Below the pieces are notes generated by a model. It saw only the letters and a list, made by a program, of their open reading frames with translations. It had not been told where the DNA came from and did no database searches. A stretch of DNA of 64,000 nt from Candidatus Limnocylindria bacterium (GTDB lineage: Bacteria > Chloroflexota > Limnocylindria > QHBO01): the NCBI GenBank assembly GCA_046715765.1, contig JBKJYH010000143.1:4584-68583 (forward strand), written 5' to 3'. The translations under genes were made by a program, and so were the position numbers. Below, in pieces: positions 2,726 through 49,804 of the stretch (the first letter of the stretch is position 1; every line of letters starts with the position of its first letter).

Positions 2726-3597
2726 CTCCGCTGCTCCTCGACGCTCAGGCCAAGCTCAACCTGTCGCTGGCGGTGGTCGGCCGCCGGGCCGATGGATTCC
2801 ATCTGCTCGACAGCATCCTGGTCCTGCTCGACCTGGCGGATCGGCTGCTGCTCGCGCCTGGCAGTCCCGGGCTGCGGGTGGAGACCGCATCGACAATCGA
2901 CTCCGGCGACGTCCCGCCCCAGCCCGAGCGCAACCTGGCCTGGCGCGGGCTGCTGGCCGGGCTGGGGGGACAGCCCGCCACGGCGTTCCTCAGCCTGCAC
3001 AAGCAGATTCCATCGGGGGCCGGGCTGGGTGGGGGATCCTCCGATGCGGCCGCCGGCTACCGGCTGGGGCGTTCCTGGTCGGGGACTGCCACCGACCCGA
3101 CCGGCGCGGAGTGCGCGGCGCTGTCGGTGATCGGGGCGGATGTGCCGTTCTTCGCCTCGCTGCTGCTGGCGGCGCGGGTCCGCGGGATCGGTGAACGGGT
3201 AGAGGCCGTTCCGCAGCCTTCGCCAAGCTCCGCGGTGCTTGTCGTGCCTCCGTTCCGCCTAGCCACTGGGGCGGTTTACGCCGAATTGCGACCGGGCGAC
3301 TGGAGCGCGGATCCGCACGAGTCAGCCGGGGCGGGGCGGAACGACCTCCTGGCGCCGGCGCGCAGGCTGCGCCCCGAACTCGACGACCTGTTTCGCGCGG
3401 TTCGTGGCGCGGGCGGCGAGCCACGACTGACCGGTAGCGGGCCTACCGTCTTCAGCCTCGTCGACGACCCGGCACGGGCCGACGCGCTCGCCGCACGTCT
3501 CGCCGCGGACGGGCTCATGGTGATCCACACCCGCCTCGCCACGCAAGCGGCTAGGATTGCGACTCTGGTGGAGGAGCAGGAGGGTCTGAACGGATGA
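2722..3597 (+). CDS. ispE: 4-diphosphocytidyl-2-C-methyl-D-erythritol kinase
   Basis: ATG at 2722 overlaps the rsmA stop (ATGA). N-terminal AKLNLSL and the GHMP-kinase glycine-rich loop PSGAGLGGGSSDAAA are present. Confidence 0.8.
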   Translation: MTPLLLDAQAKLNLSLAVVGRRADGFHLLDSILVLLDLADRLLLAPGSPGLRVETASTIDSGDVPPQPERNLAWRGLLAGLGGQPATAFLSLHKQIPSGAGLGGGSSDAAAGYRLGRSWSGTATDPTGAECAALSVIGADVPFFASLLLAARVRGIGERVEAVPQPSPSSAVLVVPPFRLATGAVYAELRPGDWSADPHESAGAGRNDLLAPARRLRPELDDLFRAVRGAGGEPRLTGSGPTVFSLVDDPARADALAARLAADGLMVIHTRLATQAARIATLVEEQEGLNG

Positions 3598-37070: not shown

Positions 37071-37775
37071 ATGGACGTCCTGCTCCGCATCCGCCGAGCC
37101 AACCCCGAGGCCGGAATCGAGTCGCACTGGGCCGAGTACCGGCTCACAGCCGAACCGTCTGACCGGGTCCTTGATCTGCTGCACCAGGTCAAGTGGTACC
37201 ACGACGGCACTCTCACCTTCCGCCGCTCATGCGCCCACGGGGTGTGCGGCTCGGACGCGATGCTGATCAACGGTCGCAATCGGCTCGCCTGCGAGGCGCT
37301 GGTCAAGGACTCCGGCCCAGAGATCAGCGTCGAACCCTTGCGTGGTCAGCGGGTCCTCAAGGACCTGCTGGTCGATACCGAGCCGTTCTGGGACTCGTAC
37401 CGCTCGATCATGCCATTCCTCATCGGTGGGGAACTTCCCGAAGACGGCCGGGAGCGGCGCCAGTCGCCCGAGGAGCGGGCGCGCTTCGACGACACCAGCA
37501 AGTGCATCCTGTGCGGTGCCTGCACGACCGCCTGCCCGTCGTTCTGGAGCAACCCCGACTACGTCGGACCGGCAGCCATCGTGAACGCCCATCGATTCAT
37601 CTTCGACAGCCGCGACACGGCGCGCGAAGAGCGCCTCCAGATCATGGCCGAGGCCGACGGGGTGTGGCGCTGCCGGACGGTGATGAATTGCGTGGAGGCT
37701 TGTCCGCGCGGGATCCAGATCACCCGCGCGATCATGGAGGTCACGGCCGAGGTCGCGGCCGCCGAGCGTGGTTGA
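37071..37775 (+). CDS. sdhB: succinate dehydrogenase iron-sulfur subunit
   Basis: 2Fe-2S motif CAHGVCGSDAMLINGRNRLAC, 4Fe-4S motif CILCGACTTACP, 3Fe-4S motif CRTVMNCVEACP. Confidence 0.9.
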   Translation: MDVLLRIRRANPEAGIESHWAEYRLTAEPSDRVLDLLHQVKWYHDGTLTFRRSCAHGVCGSDAMLINGRNRLACEALVKDSGPEISVEPLRGQRVLKDLLVDTEPFWDSYRSIMPFLIGGELPEDGRERRQSPEERARFDDTSKCILCGACTTACPSFWSNPDYVGPAAIVNAHRFIFDSRDTAREERLQIMAEADGVWRCRTVMNCVEACPRGIQITRAIMEVTAEVAAAERG

Positions 37776-38205
37776 TCGGCTGCTGATCCATACCGATGGT
37801 GCCGCGCGCGGCAATCCCGGGCCCGCTGGGCTCGGCGCCGTCCTGCGTGATGCGCAGACCGGAGCGCTCGTCGCCGAACTCGCCCGCTTCCTCGGCGTGT
37901 GCAGCAACAACGTTGCCGAGTGGACCGCGGTGGAGGACGCGCTGCGCGAAGCGCGGCGGTTGGGCGCCAGGCGGATTGATCTGCGCACCGATTCCGAGCT
38001 GGTCGCGCGCCAGATCAGCGGGCGTTATCGGGTCAAGCATCCCGACCTCAAGCCGATTCATCTCCGGGTCATGGGCCTGCTGGCGCAGTTCGACGGATAT
38101 ACGGTCGCCCACGTTCCGCGCGAACTGAACCGCGAGGCGGACCGGCTCAGCAACGTGGCAATCGACGAGCTGCGTGGGGCGCAACGCCTCGGGGGAGTAG
38201 AGTAG
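37768..38205 (+). CDS. rnhA: ribonuclease HI
   Basis: 145 aa from the GTG at 37768. It has the IHTDGAARGNPGPAG, NNVAEW and READRL catalytic motifs and overlaps the sdhB end by 8 nt. Confidence 0.85.
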   Translation: MVDRLLIHTDGAARGNPGPAGLGAVLRDAQTGALVAELARFLGVCSNNVAEWTAVEDALREARRLGARRIDLRTDSELVARQISGRYRVKHPDLKPIHLRVMGLLAQFDGYTVAHVPRELNREADRLSNVAIDELRGAQRLGGVE

Positions 38206-38212
38206 GGATCCC

Positions 38213-38526
38213 TGGAGGCGGCCGGACGGCCGCGGACGCGATCGCCGAAAGGCGGCGTTCGAGGAAAGTCCGGGCTCCACAGAGCAGGCTCGCGGGTAAC
38301 GCCCGTCCGCCGTGAGGCGAGGACCAGCGCCACAGTGACGATGCCCGCGCAAGCGGGAGTGAAACGCGGCAAGCTCGAGCCGGAGCAAGACCGAATAGGA
38401 GGGCGAAACGCGGCGTTCGCGCCGCAGCAGGTGGCTCGCTCAGCCCTCGGGTAGGTCGCTCAGATGGATGGCCGTCGCGGCGCCAGTCGGCGCCGGCACA
38501 GGACCCGGCTTACAGGCCGCTCTCCG
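38213..38526 (+). ncRNA. rnpB: RNase P RNA (bacterial type A)
   Basis: Conserved P4 strand GAGGAAAGTCCGGGCTCC, GGGTAACGCCC, GTGAAACGCGG and 3' ACAGGACCCGGCTTA. P1 pairing between 5' ctggaggcggcc and 3' ggccgctctccgg. Boundaries are within about 5 nt. Confidence 0.85.
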
Positions 38527-38532
38527 GGGAAC

Positions 38533-38919: not shown

Positions 38920-39801
38920 GTGTTCGGTCGTCGCAAGGCTTCGCAGCCGGCAGTAGCCGGTGACCCTGACCGGCGCATCCTGTTCGAGGCGCTGGCCCTG
39001 CGGCCCGATACGGTATGTCCCTTCCTCGGACTCGACGGCGCCCGGCCGGAATATCACGATGGCGCTACCCACCAGCACCGTTGCTTCGCGCTCGGCGAGG
39101 CGATGGAGCTCTCCTCTGATCAGCAGCAGCGAGTCTGCCTGCAGCGAGGCTATGGGAACTGCCCGCGCTACCTGCGCGGGGTGCTGGTCATCCCCACCGA
39201 GGAGCTCGAGGCCCTGCGCCGCCCCATTCCTCCAGCGCCGGTCCCAACGACCGCGGCCACCACGCCGTCCTGGCCGAGTCTGGGGCGAGGCGGGCTGCTC
39301 ATCGCCGGTTTGGTGGTGTTGGTTGCCAGCGGCGCAGGCGCGGGCTACCTGTTCCTCGGCGGCCAGCCGGCCAGCCCCACCCCCATCCCGAGCTCGTCGC
39401 CGACACCAACCCAGAGCGTCGCCCCGACGCTCTCTGCTGAGCCGTCGATCGCAGCGACGCCGCGCGAGACACCAATCCCTGATCCGACGCCCCGACCGGG
39501 CGACGTGTTCGTCGGACTCGAGATCACGGTGCTACGTGGCGATTACACCATCTACCTCGTTGATGACGAGGGAGTCATCGTCACCGAAGCCTCGGCGACC
39601 TTCTCGGACTTCAGCCGAGCCCCGGTGGAGGAGATCACCGCGCCCGAACCCAACGGGCGCCACCACTGGCGCACCACGGAAGGCGAATACGCGGGATATT
39701 CGTACATCGCCAGCCTCTCCGGCCCATTCCTGATTCGCGAGGTGTACCAGGGTCAGGACGGGGTCATGACCTACATCATCCTCCCCGCCGACCGCCTCTG
39801 A
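38920..39801 (+). CDS. hypothetical single-pass membrane protein with Cys/His-rich N-terminus, Pro/Thr/Ser linker and about 100-aa C-terminal domain
   Basis: 293 aa. TM helix GLLIAGLVVLVASGAGAGYLFLG, PT-rich linker, and high GC3 in the C-terminal half. The start is uncertain: the GTG at 38920 has no Shine-Dalgarno sequence, and the ATG at 39103 is the alternative. Confidence 0.5.
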   Translation: MFGRRKASQPAVAGDPDRRILFEALALRPDTVCPFLGLDGARPEYHDGATHQHRCFALGEAMELSSDQQQRVCLQRGYGNCPRYLRGVLVIPTEELEALRRPIPPAPVPTTAATTPSWPSLGRGGLLIAGLVVLVASGAGAGYLFLGGQPASPTPIPSSSPTPTQSVAPTLSAEPSIAATPRETPIPDPTPRPGDVFVGLEITVLRGDYTIYLVDDEGVIVTEASATFSDFSRAPVEEITAPEPNGRHHWRTTEGEYAGYSYIASLSGPFLIREVYQGQDGVMTYIILPADRL

Positions 39802-40589
39802 GTCCGTAGAACAGGAGGCCGCCGGCAAGGATCAGGGCCAGGCCGGCCGGCCACGCGTCGGAAGGGACGGTCATGGACGAGCCGCGCGACGCTTCCGGGC
39901 TGGCTCGCAGGGTGGGTACCGGCGAGCCTCTCACCGGCGAGGCGGCCGCGCCCCATCCAGCGGAAGTGCCAGGGCTCATACCTGTAGCAAGTGATCGAGG
40001 GGCTGAACCCGGCGGGGTAGCTCATCACGAAGCCGAACTCCCAGGCGTGGGCGGCCAGCCAGTCGCCCACGGGGGTTGCCGCCCAGTCGGCCACCTCCCA
40101 TGGCGCAGGTCCATCCACGCCGCGGAAATCGATCGCAAGCCCCAACTGGTGCTCGGAGTGACCCGGACGGGCACTCGAGAGCAGGGCCTCCGCCTCGCCG
40201 ACGCGTGCCACCCAGTCCTCGACGGTCAGCACCTGGCCCAGGTGTGATCGATACGCCGACTGGATCGCGATCGGCGTCCCGGCGGCCGCCCCGGCATTGG
40301 CGAGGGCCGTGAGGTCGTCAACCATCAGGGAGCGCACCCAGAACTCGTCGCTCAGCCCGGCCCGGCTGGTCCGGACCAGATCTGGTGGGACCTAGTCGTC
40401 CGCCACCCGGTAGATCGTGTCGAGCAAGGTGCGGTCCCATTCGGCGGGATCGGTGTACTTGGTCTGAAGGTCGTCGAACCGACACTCCGGCAGCGTGCCG
40501 CCGGCCACGGGTCCCGCCGTGATGAGAGCGCAGCACGCCGCCAGCGCCAGCCAGCCCACAAATCCGTGGCCGATGGATGGGGGTCGCAC
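39771..40589 (-). pseudogene. M15-family D-Ala-D-Ala carboxypeptidase (VanY-like) interrupted by an in-frame TAG
   Basis: ORFs 40392-40955(-) and 39771-40337(-) are in one frame, separated only by TAG at 40392-40394. The N-terminal part has a signal peptide with lipobox (FVGWLALAACC). The C-terminal part has SAYRS, HSEHQLGLAIDF and EPWHF motifs. The stop falls at ...RVADD*VPPDLV, where VanY-family proteins have a DYVPxDLV motif. Confidence 0.6.
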
Positions 40590-40631
40590 GCGGGGCAGGG
40601 TAGCCGTGCGCGATCTCCGCGCGGAAATGCC

Positions 40632-40659
40632 TTGACGGGGCGAGCACGCCCTGTAGAAT
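40632..40659 (+). promoter_or_regulatory. Pmra promoter: TTGACG - 16 nt - TAGAAT
   Basis: Near-consensus -35 (40632-40637) and -10 (40654-40659), about 65 nt upstream of the mraZ ATG. Confidence 0.5.
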
Positions 40660-40666
40660 GGCGCCC

Positions 40667-40716
40667 TGTGGCCCAAAATGGGGTCAAGTGGGGAAGAATG
40701 GTAGACAGGCAGGACG
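40667..40716 (+). promoter_or_regulatory. MraZ-operator-like direct repeats (GTGG / TGGGG / GTGGGG / TGG at 10-bp period)
   Basis: ctGTGGcccaaaaTGGGGtcaaGTGGGGaagaaTGGtag lies immediately downstream of the Pmra -10. Confidence 0.5.
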
Positions 40717-40725
40717 GCGGGATCG

Positions 40726-41175
40726 ATGGAGCGCGGCACCTTCCTGACGGGCGAGTTCCGCCACACCCTCGATGATCGAGGGCGGGTGGCGATCCCGGCG
40801 CGCTTCCGTGCCCGCCTCGAACGGGGTGCGACCCTGGCTCGCTGGCTGGACGGCTGCCTGGCGGTCTTCCCATCCGAGGAGTGGGACAGCCTCGCCACGA
40901 AGATCGCCGGGCTGCCCCTGACCAACGCGCGGGCACGCGAGTTCGCGCGGTTCATGTCGTCGGGGGCTACCGAAGTCGACCTCGATCGACAGGGCCGGGT
41001 CCTGGTGCCGGCCTACCTGCGCACCTACGCCCAGGTGGCCGAGGGCGAGGTCGTGGTGGTCGGGGCGCTCAATCGACTTGAAGTCTGGGCACCGGAGGCG
41101 TGGGCGACCTATCGGGCGCGGATCGAGGACCAGCCGGAGGCGCTGGCCGAACACCTCGCCGATCTCGGGATCTGA
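40726..41175 (+). CDS. mraZ: division/cell wall cluster transcriptional repressor MraZ
   Basis: 149 aa, two SpoVT-AbrB-like repeats (DDRGRVAIPARFR; DRQGRVLVPAYLR). Confidence 0.9.
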   Translation: MERGTFLTGEFRHTLDDRGRVAIPARFRARLERGATLARWLDGCLAVFPSEEWDSLATKIAGLPLTNARAREFARFMSSGATEVDLDRQGRVLVPAYLRTYAQVAEGEVVVVGALNRLEVWAPEAWATYRARIEDQPEALAEHLADLGI

Positions 41176-44705: not shown

Positions 44706-46132
44706 GGTTGTTAGACTCAACCCGAACACCCGCAGGGGACCGCGTGCCGCCAACCATCCCGCTGTCCGACCTGCTTGCGGCAACCGGTGGCCGGCTCCTC
44801 CGGCCCACCAGCGTCAGCGAGGTGTCGCTTGCCGCCATCGACTCCCGTCAGGTAACCCCTGGCTGCTGTTTCGTGGCATTGCGTGGCCACACCAGCGACG
44901 GGCATCGCTTCGTCGCGGACGCAATCCGCTCCGGCGCGGCGGCGGCACTCGTCTCCACTCCGGTGAGCCTGCCGCCCGACCTGGACGCGGCGCTGATCCT
45001 GGTGACCGATCCGCTCACCGCGCTGCAGGAGTTGGCCGCCTGGTGGCGGGGCCGCTCCGCCGTGCGAGTGGTGGGGATCACCGGCTCGACCGGCAAGACG
45101 ATCGCCAAGGAGATCGTCGCCGATGTCCTGGCGCGCTCCGTTCGCACCTTGCGCAACGAGGGCAACCTGAACAGCGAGACCGGCCTGCCGCTGACCCTGC
45201 TCCACCTTGACGCCCGGGACGGGGCGGCGGTCCTGGAGATGAGCATGTATACCGAGGGCGAGATTGCGCGGCTGGCCCAGATTGCCCGACCCGAGGTCGG
45301 CGTGGTGCTGAGCGTCCATCCCACGCATCTCGAGCGCGCGGGGAGCATCGATGCGATCGCGCGCGCCAAGGCCGAACTGCCGGCGGCGCTGCCGCCCGAA
45401 GGCATGGCGATCCTCAACTTGGATGATCCGCGCGTCGCCGCCATGCGCGGCGGCACCCGGGCCGCGGTGCGGACCTACGGCTTCTCCCCCGGCGCCGACG
45501 TCCGGGCCATCGATGTGGACTCGCGGGGGATGGCCGGGACGGTGTTCACCCTGGTCGCCGGGTGGGGCGTTCGCCGCCTGCGGAGCGGGACGCCGGGTCG
45601 CCACATGGTGCCGCACGCGTTGGCCGCCGCGGCCGTCGCGGAGCGCTTCGGCGTCCCTCTCGACGAGGTCGCCGACGCTCTCGCAGCGGGCAGCAGCGCC
45701 CCCCATCGGATGGCGCTGCGCGAGGCCCGGGGGGGAGCGACGATCGTCGACGATTCGTACAACGCCTCGCCCGTCTCGGTGACAGCCGCGCTCGACTTCC
45801 TCGCCGAAACGCCGCTGGCGCCCGGCCGCCGCCGGTTCGCGATCCTGGGGGACATGCTGGAACTCGGGCCTGACGAGGAGCGGCTCCACCGCGAAGTCGG
45901 GATCCGTGCCGCCGGGGTGGTGGATGCCCTGATCGGGGTTGGGGAACGAGGCCGCTGGATCGCCGATGCGGCCCGCAGCCGCGGCCTGGCGCGCGTGGCC
46001 GTGGCGCCCGACGCCGACGCTGCGCTGGCGATCGTCGACCGCGAGCTGGCGCCCGGTCCCGGCGACCTGCTGCTGATCAAGGGCAGCCGCGGCATGGCGC
46101 TCGACGCATTGGTCGAGGCCCTGGCCGAATGA
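44702..46132 (+). CDS. murF: UDP-MurNAc-tripeptide--D-Ala-D-Ala ligase
   Basis: IDSRQVTPGCCFVALRG and ITGSTGKTIAKE fit MurF rather than MurE. The start could be the GTG at 44744. Confidence 0.85.
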   Translation: MRLLDSTRTPAGDRVPPTIPLSDLLAATGGRLLRPTSVSEVSLAAIDSRQVTPGCCFVALRGHTSDGHRFVADAIRSGAAAALVSTPVSLPPDLDAALILVTDPLTALQELAAWWRGRSAVRVVGITGSTGKTIAKEIVADVLARSVRTLRNEGNLNSETGLPLTLLHLDARDGAAVLEMSMYTEGEIARLAQIARPEVGVVLSVHPTHLERAGSIDAIARAKAELPAALPPEGMAILNLDDPRVAAMRGGTRAAVRTYGFSPGADVRAIDVDSRGMAGTVFTLVAGWGVRRLRSGTPGRHMVPHALAAAAVAERFGVPLDEVADALAAGSSAPHRMALREARGGATIVDDSYNASPVSVTAALDFLAETPLAPGRRRFAILGDMLELGPDEERLHREVGIRAAGVVDALIGVGERGRWIADAARSRGLARVAVAPDADAALAIVDRELAPGPGDLLLIKGSRGMALDALVEALAE

Positions 46133-47118
46133 CCATGCTCCTGATCCTGGTGGCGCTCCTCTCGGCATTTGCCGGTGTGCTGATCCTCGGCCCGATCTAC
46201 ATCGGCCTGTTGCAGCGTCTCGGCTTCGGTAAGCAGATCCGGGTGGAGGGCCCCCAGGGACACGCCACCAAGGCCGGCACCCCGACCATGGGCGGCATGC
46301 TGCTGGTCGTGGTGGTCATGTTCCTGGCGATGGCGATGCGGATCGAGGACGCCTCGACCCTGACCCCGATGCTGGCCCTGGTAGGGGTATCGGTGCTGGG
46401 CGCGATCGACGATTACGTGAATGTGCGGACCGGGATCGGGATGCGCGGCCGTTACAAGCTGGTGTGGCAGACCGTGGTCGCCCTGCTGGCGGCCTTCTAC
46501 GTCCAGCGCCACTTCGACATCACCGCCGTCAACATCCCGTTCGCCGGCGAGATCGTGATCGGGGGTGCGCTCTTCATCGCCTTCGTCGCCTTCGTGATCG
46601 TGGGGGTCAGCAATGCGGTGAACCTGACCGATGGCCTTGATGGTCTGGCCGGCGGCACGCTCATCTTCAGCTTCGTGGCGTACTTGCTGATCGCCCTGGT
46701 GGAGGTCCCCGGCAGCAAGGTCGCGATGCCCAACCTGGCCATCTTCTGCGCGCTGGTGATCGGCGCCCTGATCGGATTCCTGTGGTTCAACGTGCACCCG
46801 GCTCAGCTGTTCATGGGGGACTCGGGGGCACTCTCGATGGGCGCGACCCTGGCCGTAGTCGCCACCATCACCGGACAGCTTCCCCTGCTGGTGGTGATCG
46901 GCGTGGTCTTCCTGGCCGTCATCCTGAGCGTGGTTCTACAGGTCGCCTCATTCCGTCTCCGCGGTCGGCGGATCTTCCGGATGGCCCCATTGCAGCATCA
47001 CTTCGAACTGGTGGGCTGGGCCGAGGAAAAGATCACCATCCGCTTCTGGATCATCAGCGCCCTCGCCGGGCTGCTCGGGTTCAGCCTCTTCCTGGCCAGC
47101 GTGGATGCCCTCCGATGA
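46129..47118 (+). CDS. mraY: phospho-N-acetylmuramoyl-pentapeptide transferase
   Basis: 329 aa, 10 TM helices, with the NAVNLTDGLDGLA motif. Confidence 0.9.
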   Translation: MTMLLILVALLSAFAGVLILGPIYIGLLQRLGFGKQIRVEGPQGHATKAGTPTMGGMLLVVVVMFLAMAMRIEDASTLTPMLALVGVSVLGAIDDYVNVRTGIGMRGRYKLVWQTVVALLAAFYVQRHFDITAVNIPFAGEIVIGGALFIAFVAFVIVGVSNAVNLTDGLDGLAGGTLIFSFVAYLLIALVEVPGSKVAMPNLAIFCALVIGALIGFLWFNVHPAQLFMGDSGALSMGATLAVVATITGQLPLLVVIGVVFLAVILSVVLQVASFRLRGRRIFRMAPLQHHFELVGWAEEKITIRFWIISALAGLLGFSLFLASVDALR

Positions 47119-48542
47119 CCGCCGCCATTGCCTCGGTGCGAACCCTTGCCGACCTGCGCCATCGGCGAGTTCTGGTGCTCGGCCTGGCACGCTCGGGAAG
47201 TGCCGCGGCGCGCCTCCTGCTGAGCGCCGGCGCCCGGGTGACGGCATATGACCGCCGGCCCATCCACGACCTGCCCGACGCGGGTTCGCTGGCCGAGGCG
47301 GGAGTCGATCTCCGGCTTGGCGCCTCGCCCGACGAGGTTCGCGGCCTGCTCGACACGGCCGACCTGGTTGTGACCAGCCCCAGCATCAGCCTCCGCCTGC
47401 CGATCACCGACCCATGGCTGCGCGAGGCGCTCAGCGACGCCGCCGCCCGCGGGCTCGAGATCGTTAGCGAGGTCGATCTCTTCCTGCGCCTGACCAGGGC
47501 GCAGGTGCTGGGCGTGACCGGGACAAAGGGCAAGACCACCACCACCGTCCTCATCGGCGAGATCCTGACCGCCGCCGGGGTTCCGCACCGGGTGGGCGGC
47601 AATATCGGCCGGCCACTGATCGAGGAGGTGACCCGCCTCAGCGAGACGGACTGGGCCGTCCTCGAACTTTCCGAGTTGCAGTTGCCCACCATCACGCGGG
47701 GCGTGGAGCTCGCCGTGTACACCAACATCGCGGCCGACCACCTGGATCGCCACGGCAGCCAGGAGGCCTACCGTTCGGTGAAGGCACGGCTGGCCGAATT
47801 GAGCGCGGAATCTGGGCGGGTCGTGCTCAATGCCGATGACCCAGGTTGCCGCGATCTCGGCGCTCGCCTGCCGCGGGGCGCGGTGAAGTGGTACGGGCTC
47901 GACCCGGCCGCACCCGGGCTGGCGGGAACGCTGCGCGACGGCTGGCTGGTGATCGGTGGCGAACGCATCATGCCGGTCGCGGAAATGCCACTCGTCGGAG
48001 AACACCTGCTCGCCGACGCGCTGGCCGCGGGCACGGCTGCGAGCCTGCTGGGCGTGCCGGGCGACGCCATCGCAGCGGGGATTCGTGGCTTCGGTGGCGT
48101 GCCTCATCGGATGGAGCTGGTCGCCGAGTGGGCCGGCCTGCGGTGGGTCAACGATTCGCAGGCGACGATCCCGATGGCTGCGATTGCCGGGCTGCGTGCT
48201 TTCGCCCCGGCGCCGGTGGTCGTCATCGCCGGTGGATCGGACAAGGGTCTCGACTACGCCGATCTTGCGCGGATCATCGTCGAGCGCTGCCGCGCCGCGG
48301 TGCTCATCGGCGAGACGGCGCCGACCCTCGCGTCCCTGATCGGGGACCGGGTACCCGTTCGCCTCGCGGCCGGCATGGACGACGCCGTGGCGGCCGCGGC
48401 CGCGGTCGCGCACCCAGGTGACGTGGTGCTGCTCGCGCCCGCGGCCGCCAGTTTCGACATGTTCGCCGACTATGCGGCGCGGGGCGACGCCTTCCGCCGA
48501 GCCGTGCTCGCCATCCGTCCGGATGACGAGTTGCCGAGGTGA
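47115..48542 (+). CDS. murD: UDP-MurNAc-L-Ala--D-Glu ligase
   Basis: ATG at 47115 overlaps the mraY stop. VLVLGLARSG Rossmann fold, and GVTGTKGKTTTT P-loop. Confidence 0.9.
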   Translation: MTAAIASVRTLADLRHRRVLVLGLARSGSAAARLLLSAGARVTAYDRRPIHDLPDAGSLAEAGVDLRLGASPDEVRGLLDTADLVVTSPSISLRLPITDPWLREALSDAAARGLEIVSEVDLFLRLTRAQVLGVTGTKGKTTTTVLIGEILTAAGVPHRVGGNIGRPLIEEVTRLSETDWAVLELSELQLPTITRGVELAVYTNIAADHLDRHGSQEAYRSVKARLAELSAESGRVVLNADDPGCRDLGARLPRGAVKWYGLDPAAPGLAGTLRDGWLVIGGERIMPVAEMPLVGEHLLADALAAGTAASLLGVPGDAIAAGIRGFGGVPHRMELVAEWAGLRWVNDSQATIPMAAIAGLRAFAPAPVVVIAGGSDKGLDYADLARIIVERCRAAVLIGETAPTLASLIGDRVPVRLAAGMDDAVAAAAAVAHPGDVVLLAPAAASFDMFADYAARGDAFRRAVLAIRPDDELPR

Positions 48543-49804
48543 CCGCCGCCGCTGTGGTCACCTCCCGTGCAACTCGCGTGGCACGCCAGGGTGTCCAGCG
48601 CGATCGTGGCCCGATCGCGGTTGGGCTGCTGGTCCCGGTCGTCGCGCTGGTGGCATTGGGCGTGGTGATGGTCTATTCCGCATCGAGCGTGCGATCCTAT
48701 TTCGCGTCCTCGGACGCGAGCGCCCAGGGCGTGCAGCAGGCGATCTGGGCGGTGCTCGGAATCTCGCTGATGCTGATCGTGAGCCGCCTCGACTTCCGGC
48801 TGCTGCGCTACGTGGCGATCCCGGGCCTGGTGCTGAGCCTGGCGCTGCTAGGCGCGGTGCTGATCCCGGGGATCGGGATCGAGGTTTCGGGTTCGCGTCG
48901 CTGGCTGGATCTGCCGGTCATCGGCGCGGTGCAACCGGCCGAAATGGCAAAGCTGGCGATCTGCGTCTACCTTGCCCACTGGCTCGACCGACGCGGCCAC
49001 CAGGCGCGGGGCTTCGCCCACGGATTCGTCCCATTCGCGTTGCTGGTGGGACCCGGCTTCGCGTTGATCGCGCTCGAACCAGACCTGGGCACGGCCGGGG
49101 TGTACGCCACCGCGGCGCTCGCGATCTTCTTCGTGTCTGGGGCCAACCTGTTCTACTTCGCCGCCATGGCTGGCTCGGTGCTTGCCGCGGCGGTCGCGAT
49201 GGTCGTGTCGACCCCGTACCAGCTCCAGCGGGTGCACGCCTTCCTGGACCCGTTCAGCGACCCGCTGCGCAGCGGCTACAACGCGGTCCAGGCCCTAATG
49301 GCGCTGGGCACCGGTGGCCTGCTGGGGCTGGGACTGGGCGCCAGCCGCCAGAAGTTTCTGTACCTGCCCGCCCCATCCACCGACTTCATCTTCGCCATCA
49401 TCGGCGAGGAGTGGGGCCTGATCGGCACCTTGGCCGTGCTCGGCCTCTTCGTGCTGGTCGCCTATCATGGCTACCGGATAGCGATCCACGCCCCCGACAC
49501 CTTCTCGGGCCTGCTGGCGGCCGGGCTGACCACCTGGCTGGTGGCACAGGCCACCATCAACATGATGGTGGTGACGGCCCTTCTGCCGGTGACCGGCATC
49601 CCGCTGCCGTTCATCAGCTACGGTGGCTCGGCACTCATCGTCAACCTCGTGGCGGTCGGCATCCTGCTCTCGATCAGCCGCGAGACCACCCAGACAGGGA
49701 CCTTGCTGCATGCGGTGTTTGGTGTCAGGCGGCGGGACCGGGGGGCACGTGCACCCGGCGCTGGCCGTCGCCCGGGCCCTGCGCCACGCGCAACCCGGGC
49801 TTGA
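48539..49804 (+). CDS. ftsW: peptidoglycan glycosyltransferase FtsW (SEDS family)
   Basis: 10 TM helices, with the SEDS motifs (PxEhhK-like QPAEMAKL; FISYGGSA). The R-rich C-terminal tail overlaps murG by about 95 nt. Confidence 0.85.
   Translation: MTAAAVVTSRATRVARQGVQRDRGPIAVGLLVPVVALVALGVVMVYSASSVRSYFASSDASAQGVQQAIWAVLGISLMLIVSRLDFRLLRYVAIPGLVLSLALLGAVLIPGIGIEVSGSRRWLDLPVIGAVQPAEMAKLAICVYLAHWLDRRGHQARGFAHGFVPFALLVGPGFALIALEPDLGTAGVYATAALAIFFVSGANLFYFAAMAGSVLAAAVAMVVSTPYQLQRVHAFLDPFSDPLRSGYNAVQALMALGTGGLLGLGLGASRQKFLYLPAPSTDFIFAIIGEEWGLIGTLAVLGLFVLVAYHGYRIAIHAPDTFSGLLAAGLTTWLVAQATINMMVVTALLPVTGIPLPFISYGGSALIVNLVAVGILLSISRETTQTGTLLHAVFGVRRRDRGARAPGAGRRPGPAPRATRA

Follow-up and report, generated by a model that had tools for sequence, protein, structure and literature searches.

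The M15 (VanY-domain) peptidase gene that occupies positions 39776-40589 on the minus strand of the 64-kb stretch of DNA analysed here, hereafter the window, is very probably an ordinary, young pseudogene, derived from an exported and membrane-tethered zinc peptidoglycan carboxypeptidase of the M15B/VanY-LdcB type, a known enzyme family. Its inactivation would have involved two changes, namely a TAC to TAG substitution at a near-invariant tyrosine and an independent deletion of about 149 nt, which removed the terminal helix of the domain and disconnected the linker and the membrane anchor. The preliminary description of this DNA had offered three explanations side by side, a pseudogene, a sequencing error, and readthrough or recoding of the stop codon; the second lesion, the intact orthologs carrying TAC and the use of TAG as a normal terminator favour the pseudogene, and recoding is not supported. 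We infer that both lesions belong to the organism and are not products of the assembly, and that no product is made from the locus.

The limits of the gene were obtained from a DNA alignment with the syntenic ortholog of an ENA contig (L001, encoding protein P0002) and from tblastn matches in two frames. The ancestral start is likely GTG at 40589-40587, which the DNA alignment shows to be conserved in L001, and the ancestral stop to TGA at 39778-39776, whose context GGAGGATGA is conserved in the same contig. As originally described, two minus-strand ORFs, 40392..40955 and 39771..40337, lie in one frame with a TAG between them; the minus-strand translation of 39771-40655 proceeds from GWLALAACCALITAGPVAGGTLPECRFDDLQTKYTDPAEWDRTLLDTIYRVADD through the stop to VPPDLVRTSRAGL, and then through SAYRS, HSEHQLGLAIDF and EPWHFRWMGRGRLAGERLAGTHPASQ to GRMM and a second stop, with the amber codon immediately flanked by TLLDTIYRVADD and VPPDLVRTSRAGL. 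That the two halves belong to one protein was confirmed by a single ungapped tblastn alignment with P0002, which crosses the stop over 213 aa with 76% identity (E=1e-127), far beyond chance. The reported location beside the dcw cluster also holds, the M15 gene being divergent from the adjoining mraZ-rsmH-ftsI-mur-mraY genes.

The first lesion is the in-frame amber TAG at 40392-40394 (minus strand; CTA on the plus strand), which translation, homologs and orthologs all place at the Tyr of the D-Y-V-P-P-D-L-V segment. In a MAFFT alignment of 119 homologs, this column holds Tyr in 117 sequences, Phe in one and Asp in one, within a motif D-Y-[VA]-P-P-D-L-V, which bears out the claim that the amber codon sits at a conserved Tyr of D-Y-V-P-x-D-L-V. 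The proposed change of a Tyr codon to TAG was likewise corroborated, since three assemblies of the closest syntenic relative (L001, L007 and L008) have TAC here, and Tyr also occupies this position in P0004, a protein encoded by a further locus (L003). With TAC as the ortholog codon, a single C to G transversion on the coding strand (G to C on the plus strand) at 40392 suffices. TAG is codon 66, and translation halts after 65 residues, ahead of the catalytic domain.

The second lesion (39947..39948, minus strand) was located by pairwise DNA alignment and blastn right after EPWHFRWMGR, where about 149 nt of the ortholog are gone and the frame changes. The DNA alignment displays a 149-column gap in the window relative to L001 directly after TGGATGGGGCGC, and the first blastn alignment with L001 ends exactly at 39948; between the two blastn alignments there are 86 nt in the window and 271 nt in L001, which leaves the window 185 nt shorter on balance. 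The Glu codon of EPWH (39977) and the conserved stop are 202 nt apart in the window, which is not a multiple of 3, and 387 nt apart in L001. The deleted segment, beginning RLAARVRVSGLTIREYLWEV, encodes the last helix of the domain (xLAxxVRxSGLTxREYLW) and the start of the linker; four columns conserved in at least 90% of the aligned homologs (A, R, L and W) fall inside it, and it belongs to the crystallised portion of LdcB, because structure 4ox3 aligns to residues 55-234 of P0002. The frame across the conserved domain and the topogenic signals is therefore interrupted twice, by the TAG at codon 66 and by the net -185 nt frameshift. A later frameshift site, after RGRLAGERLAG (which resembles RRLAARVRVSG), was considered and rejected, the bases there fitting the ortholog linker at about 68% and the helix region at about 37% by hand count. 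A MAFFT alignment of the 3' ends of three sequences placed the short window fragment wrongly and was left out.

Downstream of the junction, the frame of the catalytic core runs into an out-of-frame tail (39771..39947, minus strand), from GRLAGERLAGTHPASQ to SAGRMM and a TAG at 39771-39773. This 58-aa Arg/Pro-rich tail is not ancestral protein sequence: it scores -30.7 bits over 58 codons (-0.53 per codon) under the codon model described below, versus +56 over 147 codons (+0.38) for the core, and in the core frame tblastn with P0002 finds no homology to the C-terminus of the ortholog. The suspicion that these residues are non-ancestral and reflect further decay was therefore right, but their cause is the frameshifting deletion of about 149 nt rather than the readthrough first proposed. 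The ancestral frame itself survives in 39779..39946 (minus strand) as a remnant of the Pro/Ser-rich linker and the C-terminal membrane anchor, revealed by the second tblastn alignment and unreachable from the core frame. In this other frame, PSDAWPAGLALILAGGLLFYGLRGGRRGG plus stop at 39779-39865 matches about residues 301-332 of P0002, LLPDAWSAGLALVLAAGLLLYGLRGARRGG plus stop, and the corresponding ORF, 39776..39979 on the minus strand, appears in the mechanical ORF list. The low-complexity linker further differs in length from that of L001 by 36 nt (12 codons, in frame) at 39870..39871 (minus strand; pairwise DNA alignment), which is probably ordinary linker variation and would not alone be inactivating.

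The joined translation matches the Pfam VanY profile (PF02557) with 93.7 bits (gathering score 25; E=1e-26) over profile positions 4-131 of 132. The domain corresponds to residues 85-213 of the joined translation (39951..40337, minus strand), in a frame that is open and lies wholly downstream of the TAG. All of the M15/VanY motifs that had been pointed out were found in frame: SAYRS, with its Arg, at 40245-40259; the H-x6-D zinc ligands, as HSEHQLGLAIDF (HSEHQLGLAID), at 40125-40160; and E-x-x-H, as EPWH, at 39966-39977. The catalytic residues of these motifs are invariant across the 119 aligned homologs. The LAS-type catalytic set of LdcB comprises Arg, H-x6-D, E-x-x-H and a distal His, and the putative roles of the motifs in the window copy are assigned by the same study of LdcB structures (PMC4087270). 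Both the profile score and the LAS-type residues place the protein in Pfam VanY PF02557 / MEROPS M15B. The database search returned more than 5000 homologs, the top match, P0001, being the 184-aa truncated product of the window locus itself, and the next, P0002, a protein of 332 aa with 77% identity; the nearest named homologs come from Limnocylindrales and Trueperaceae metagenome-assembled genomes (53-59% identity), and a scan of genome contigs returned solely a Trueperaceae paralog, 49% identical.

The family named in the preliminary description therefore stands, but the label D,D-carboxypeptidase comes from the Pfam name only, and the closest relatives of solved structure are LdcB LD-carboxypeptidases. 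The LdcB/YodJ/DacB proteins of Bacillus and Streptococcus gave the best structure matches (4ox3, E=8.7e-29 against the intact ortholog, then 4mph, 4jid and 4ox5), and share with the window protein the LAS-type zinc site (H-x6-D ... H), the Arg and the E-x-x-H, as well as a y-x-l-P-x-x-Y-x-P-x-D-L-V segment and a terminal ...LTLEEY helix, both inside the crystallised domain. Features that set the ancestral protein apart from LdcB are a conserved pair of cysteines, a linker that is long and of low complexity, and a membrane anchor at the C-terminus; the window copy, moreover, is inactivated. With the VanY/VanXY resistance enzymes (PF02557, M15B) the protein shares the Pfam domain, well over the gathering score, and the catalytic motifs; in contrast to them, it has no van-operon context and adjoins mraZ instead. 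The NCBIfam LdcB model NF041194 has a cut-off of 275 bits, which neither the reconstructed window protein (64.1) nor the intact P0002 (83.6) reached, and against the VanY-A/B and VanXY models (NF000472, NF000473 and NF000380; cut-offs of 250-425 bits) scores were 42-58 bits (42-63 bits for the VanY/VanXY models overall). Since no NCBIfam equivalog cut-off was reached, LD- or DD-specificity is left unassigned, and a safe name is M15 family (VanY/LdcB-like) peptidoglycan carboxypeptidase; the ancestral protein presumably acted on stem peptides as one or the other.

Two cysteines are invariant in 118-119 of the homologs, the Cys of LPxCRYDD and that of TCYxYEPWH (C36 and C201), and both codons are kept in the pseudogene, at about 40482-40484 and 39987-39989; this pattern suggests a conserved disulfide in an exported M15 subfamily. 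The N-terminal region (40500..40589, minus strand) reads as a putative export signal, VRPPSIGHGFVGWLALAACCALITAGPVAGG, with a lipobox-like L-A-A-C and then the conserved LPxCRYDD segment, an assignment drawn from the translation and from the hydrophobic N-termini of homologs. By pattern match only, the lipobox-like residues are L-A-A-C in the window and L-G-A-C in P0002, and P0004, 67% identical, has no Cys in its signal region, so lipidation is uncertain.

Intact orthologs in the same position were found in related genomes. Contig L001 is syntenic with the window: rsmH and mraZ share a strand, the M15 gene runs divergently from them, and a convergent gene follows downstream. The M15 gene of L001 is complete (332 aa); P0004, the product of L003, is intact, has 330 aa, and its gene adjoins mraZ. 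An exact 24-mer around the TAG had no match in the metagenomes, and relaxing the pattern at variable positions yielded two further intact orthologs, on the JGI metagenome contigs L007 and L008, which share 85.6% identity with the window along 2.35 kb; L008 carries a complete ORF with helix, linker and anchor. More distant homologs (P0013 and P0106, 56-59% identity) do not adjoin mraZ, which limits the syntenic orthologs to the closest two lineages. In the window copy, disabling lesions thus occur where intact syntenic orthologs carry sense sequence.

The remainder of the gene still bears the marks of its functional past. Between the window and L001, dN/dS is 0.21 for the M15 core, 0.15 for mraZ, 0.16 for rsmH and 0.22 for the convergent neighbour. 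Together with the retained catalytic motifs, the value of 0.21 implies a recent inactivation. Among 67 highly conserved columns, six differ from the consensus in the window copy (Y38F, the stop, A100G, Y116H, F123V and Y211W); the homologs have a median of 1 such departure, P0002 has 3, and only 2 of the 119 have as many as 6. Taken together, the dN/dS, the motifs and cysteines kept and the six departures indicate long purifying selection followed by a recent loss of constraint.

A sequencing or assembly artefact, in which the gene is intact in the organism and both the TAG and the deletion arise from consensus error or from collapse in the repetitive, GC-rich linker, is the only serious rival but appears unlikely. 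It is in keeping with the single database contig of 73.8 kb, taken to be a metagenome assembly, with the position of the right deletion end, in Pro/Ser-coding sequence of low complexity that assemblers can join wrongly, and with 640 nt at the 5' side that are still cleanly coding-like, as an assembly error in a live gene would appear. However, it would require two kinds of lesion in one gene of about 0.8 kb, a transversion outside any homopolymer and a deletion whose left end lies in unique catalytic-domain sequence, and the excess of substitutions at conserved columns fits relaxed selection rather than error. Two different lesions confined to one 0.8-kb gene form the decay pattern of a dead gene, not that of random error, and no other interrupted frame was detected in the 64 kb. 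There is no sign in the window of a generally poor assembly: MraZ, RsmH, the FtsI-type PBP, the Mur ligases, MraY and MurG have near full-length Pfam matches, and MraZ (149 aa) and RsmH (318 aa) are identical in length to their L001 orthologs. A heuristic frame-switch scan of limited sensitivity returned 13 sites, all at or near boundaries of consecutive called genes and none intragenic, and since it missed the deletion of the M15 gene itself, the statement that the window has no other lesions is a soft one. Decoding of the TAG, whether by a suppressor tRNA-Tyr, as pyrrolysine or under a reassigned code, with a full-length enzyme as the result, is exceedingly improbable. The TAG does stand exactly at a Tyr sense position, with the downstream frame open through all catalytic motifs, but the orthologs have plain TAC, and TAG ends 19 of the 66 genes called in the window (TGA 42, TAA 5; a crude gene call), being therefore a regular terminator here. 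A codon log-odds model trained on 25 long window ORFs was applied to every stop in six frames, requiring that the 60 codons before and the 60 codons after a stop each give an in-frame coding signal above 15 bits, and the stop at 40392-40394 alone passed in the 64 kb, so that no other TAG has an in-frame coding continuation; an earlier list of same-frame ORF pairs with GC by position was uninformative, antisense 'shadow' ORFs being long at 69% GC. The many in-frame sense TAGs and the avoidance of TAG as terminator expected of a reassigned code are not seen in the window, whose three tRNAs (Asn-GTT, Met-CAT and Val-CAC) include none with a CUA anticodon. Furthermore, given the frameshifting deletion, a readthrough product would still miss the conserved terminal helix and the membrane anchor.

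It is also very improbable that a shortened, cytoplasmic M15 enzyme in the style of the VanX-like dipeptidases is still made from the downstream ORF, with the 184 aa of P0001 or 188 aa from GTG 40337. All catalytic residues do lie within this ORF, and P0001 exists as a database protein; against this, such an enzyme would be without about 30 structured N-terminal residues that align to the LdcB structures, without the C-terminal helix and without the signal peptide needed to reach peptidoglycan. It would also have lost the N-terminal Cys of the invariant pair, its last 58 codons are non-coding in codon usage, and no Shine-Dalgarno-like sequence was seen before GTG 40337 or ATG 40325. There is little chance, too, that partial amber suppression occurs, for example by a tRNA-Tyr-derived suppressor elsewhere in the genome, or that the internal 184-188-aa ORF is translated; were it so, this lineage would still produce, from a gene beside the dcw operon, small amounts of an M15 peptidase with a different tail and no anchor.

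Taking the locus as a pseudogene, the syntenic orthologs depict an ancestral protein of probably 330-332 aa with a signal peptide, a LAS-type catalytic domain, a linker rich in Pro, Ser and Thr and, at the C-terminus, a transmembrane anchor that ends in a basic cytoplasmic tail. Its gene would have been transcribed divergently from the mraZ promoter region of the dcw cluster. The protein was probably exported by its N-terminal signal sequence, and the C-terminal anchor would hold it at the outer face of the membrane, the RGGRRGG tail fitting the positive-inside rule; there, as LdcB does (PMC4087270), the enzyme would use a zinc-activated water to trim the stem peptides of peptidoglycan. In the present copy, none of these steps, export, anchoring or trimming, would be expected to operate.

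The locus resembles ordinary bacterial pseudogenes that decay by nonsense and indel mutations, in its premature stop and frameshifting deletion opposite intact syntenic orthologs, in a mild excess of substitutions at conserved sites, and in a remainder that is still gene-like. It is peculiar only in that other functional elements share the two ends of the gene, and this sharing may help to preserve the sequence there. In annotation, the locus is to be flagged as a pseudogene, and not as the 184-aa protein of the database. A carboxypeptidase kept divergent from mraZ in at least two related lineages has been dispensable in the lineage of the window, which implies redundancy among the many M15 paralogs of the group. 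The locus also provides a clean negative control for screens of stop-codon recoding, in which a lone in-frame TAG at a conserved residue is decay, as shown by a second lesion.

At the 5' side of the pseudogene, a strong sigma-70-like promoter for mraZ (TTGACG-16-TAGAAT, 10 of 12 matches) is located at 40632-40659 on the plus strand, in a stretch almost 100% conserved with L001; with this promoter within it, the 5' flank of the dead M15 gene is under independent constraint. Three direct repeats with a period of 10 nt, TGGGG-N5-TGGGG-N5-TGGTA, follow the promoter at 40679-40703 (plus strand) and resemble the TGGGN operator repeats of MraZ known from E. coli. At the other side, the ancestral M15 stop and a convergent 293-aa gene (38920-39801, plus strand) overlap tail-to-tail by 26 nt (39776-39801), and the overlap in L001 is likewise of 26 nt (genes 1788-2786 and 2761-3135), which may explain the still well conserved 3' end of the pseudogene. 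The product of this neighbour has no Pfam match; it begins with an N-terminus rich in Cys and His (CPFLG...HQHRCF...CLQRGYGNCPRY), continues with a hydrophobic segment and a linker rich in Pro, Thr and Ser, and ends in a globular part, and its 120 C-terminal residues show 79% amino-acid identity with L001.

Further upstream on the plus strand, a class A RNase P RNA (RF00010, 148.7 bits; gathering score 100) at 38214-38529 occupies most of a 714-nt 'gene-free' gap between the gene at 38920 and that of a 145-aa RNase H-like protein (Pfam RVT_3 and RNase_H; 37768-38205, plus strand), which lies directly upstream of the RNA gene. Within the dcw cluster, a single Mur-ligase gene (462 aa) was found between the ftsI-type PBP gene and mraY (44744-47118, plus strand). 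Many dcw clusters have both murE and murF at this place, and a second Mur ligase may lie elsewhere in the genome. Finally, the ftsW ORF (48539-49804, plus strand), which is in a different frame from murG, extends about 90 nt beyond the probable start of that gene (MRCLVSGGGTGGH, about 49710; region 49710-49804); either the two genes overlap to an unusual extent, or the Arg/Pro-rich tail of ftsW has been drawn too long.
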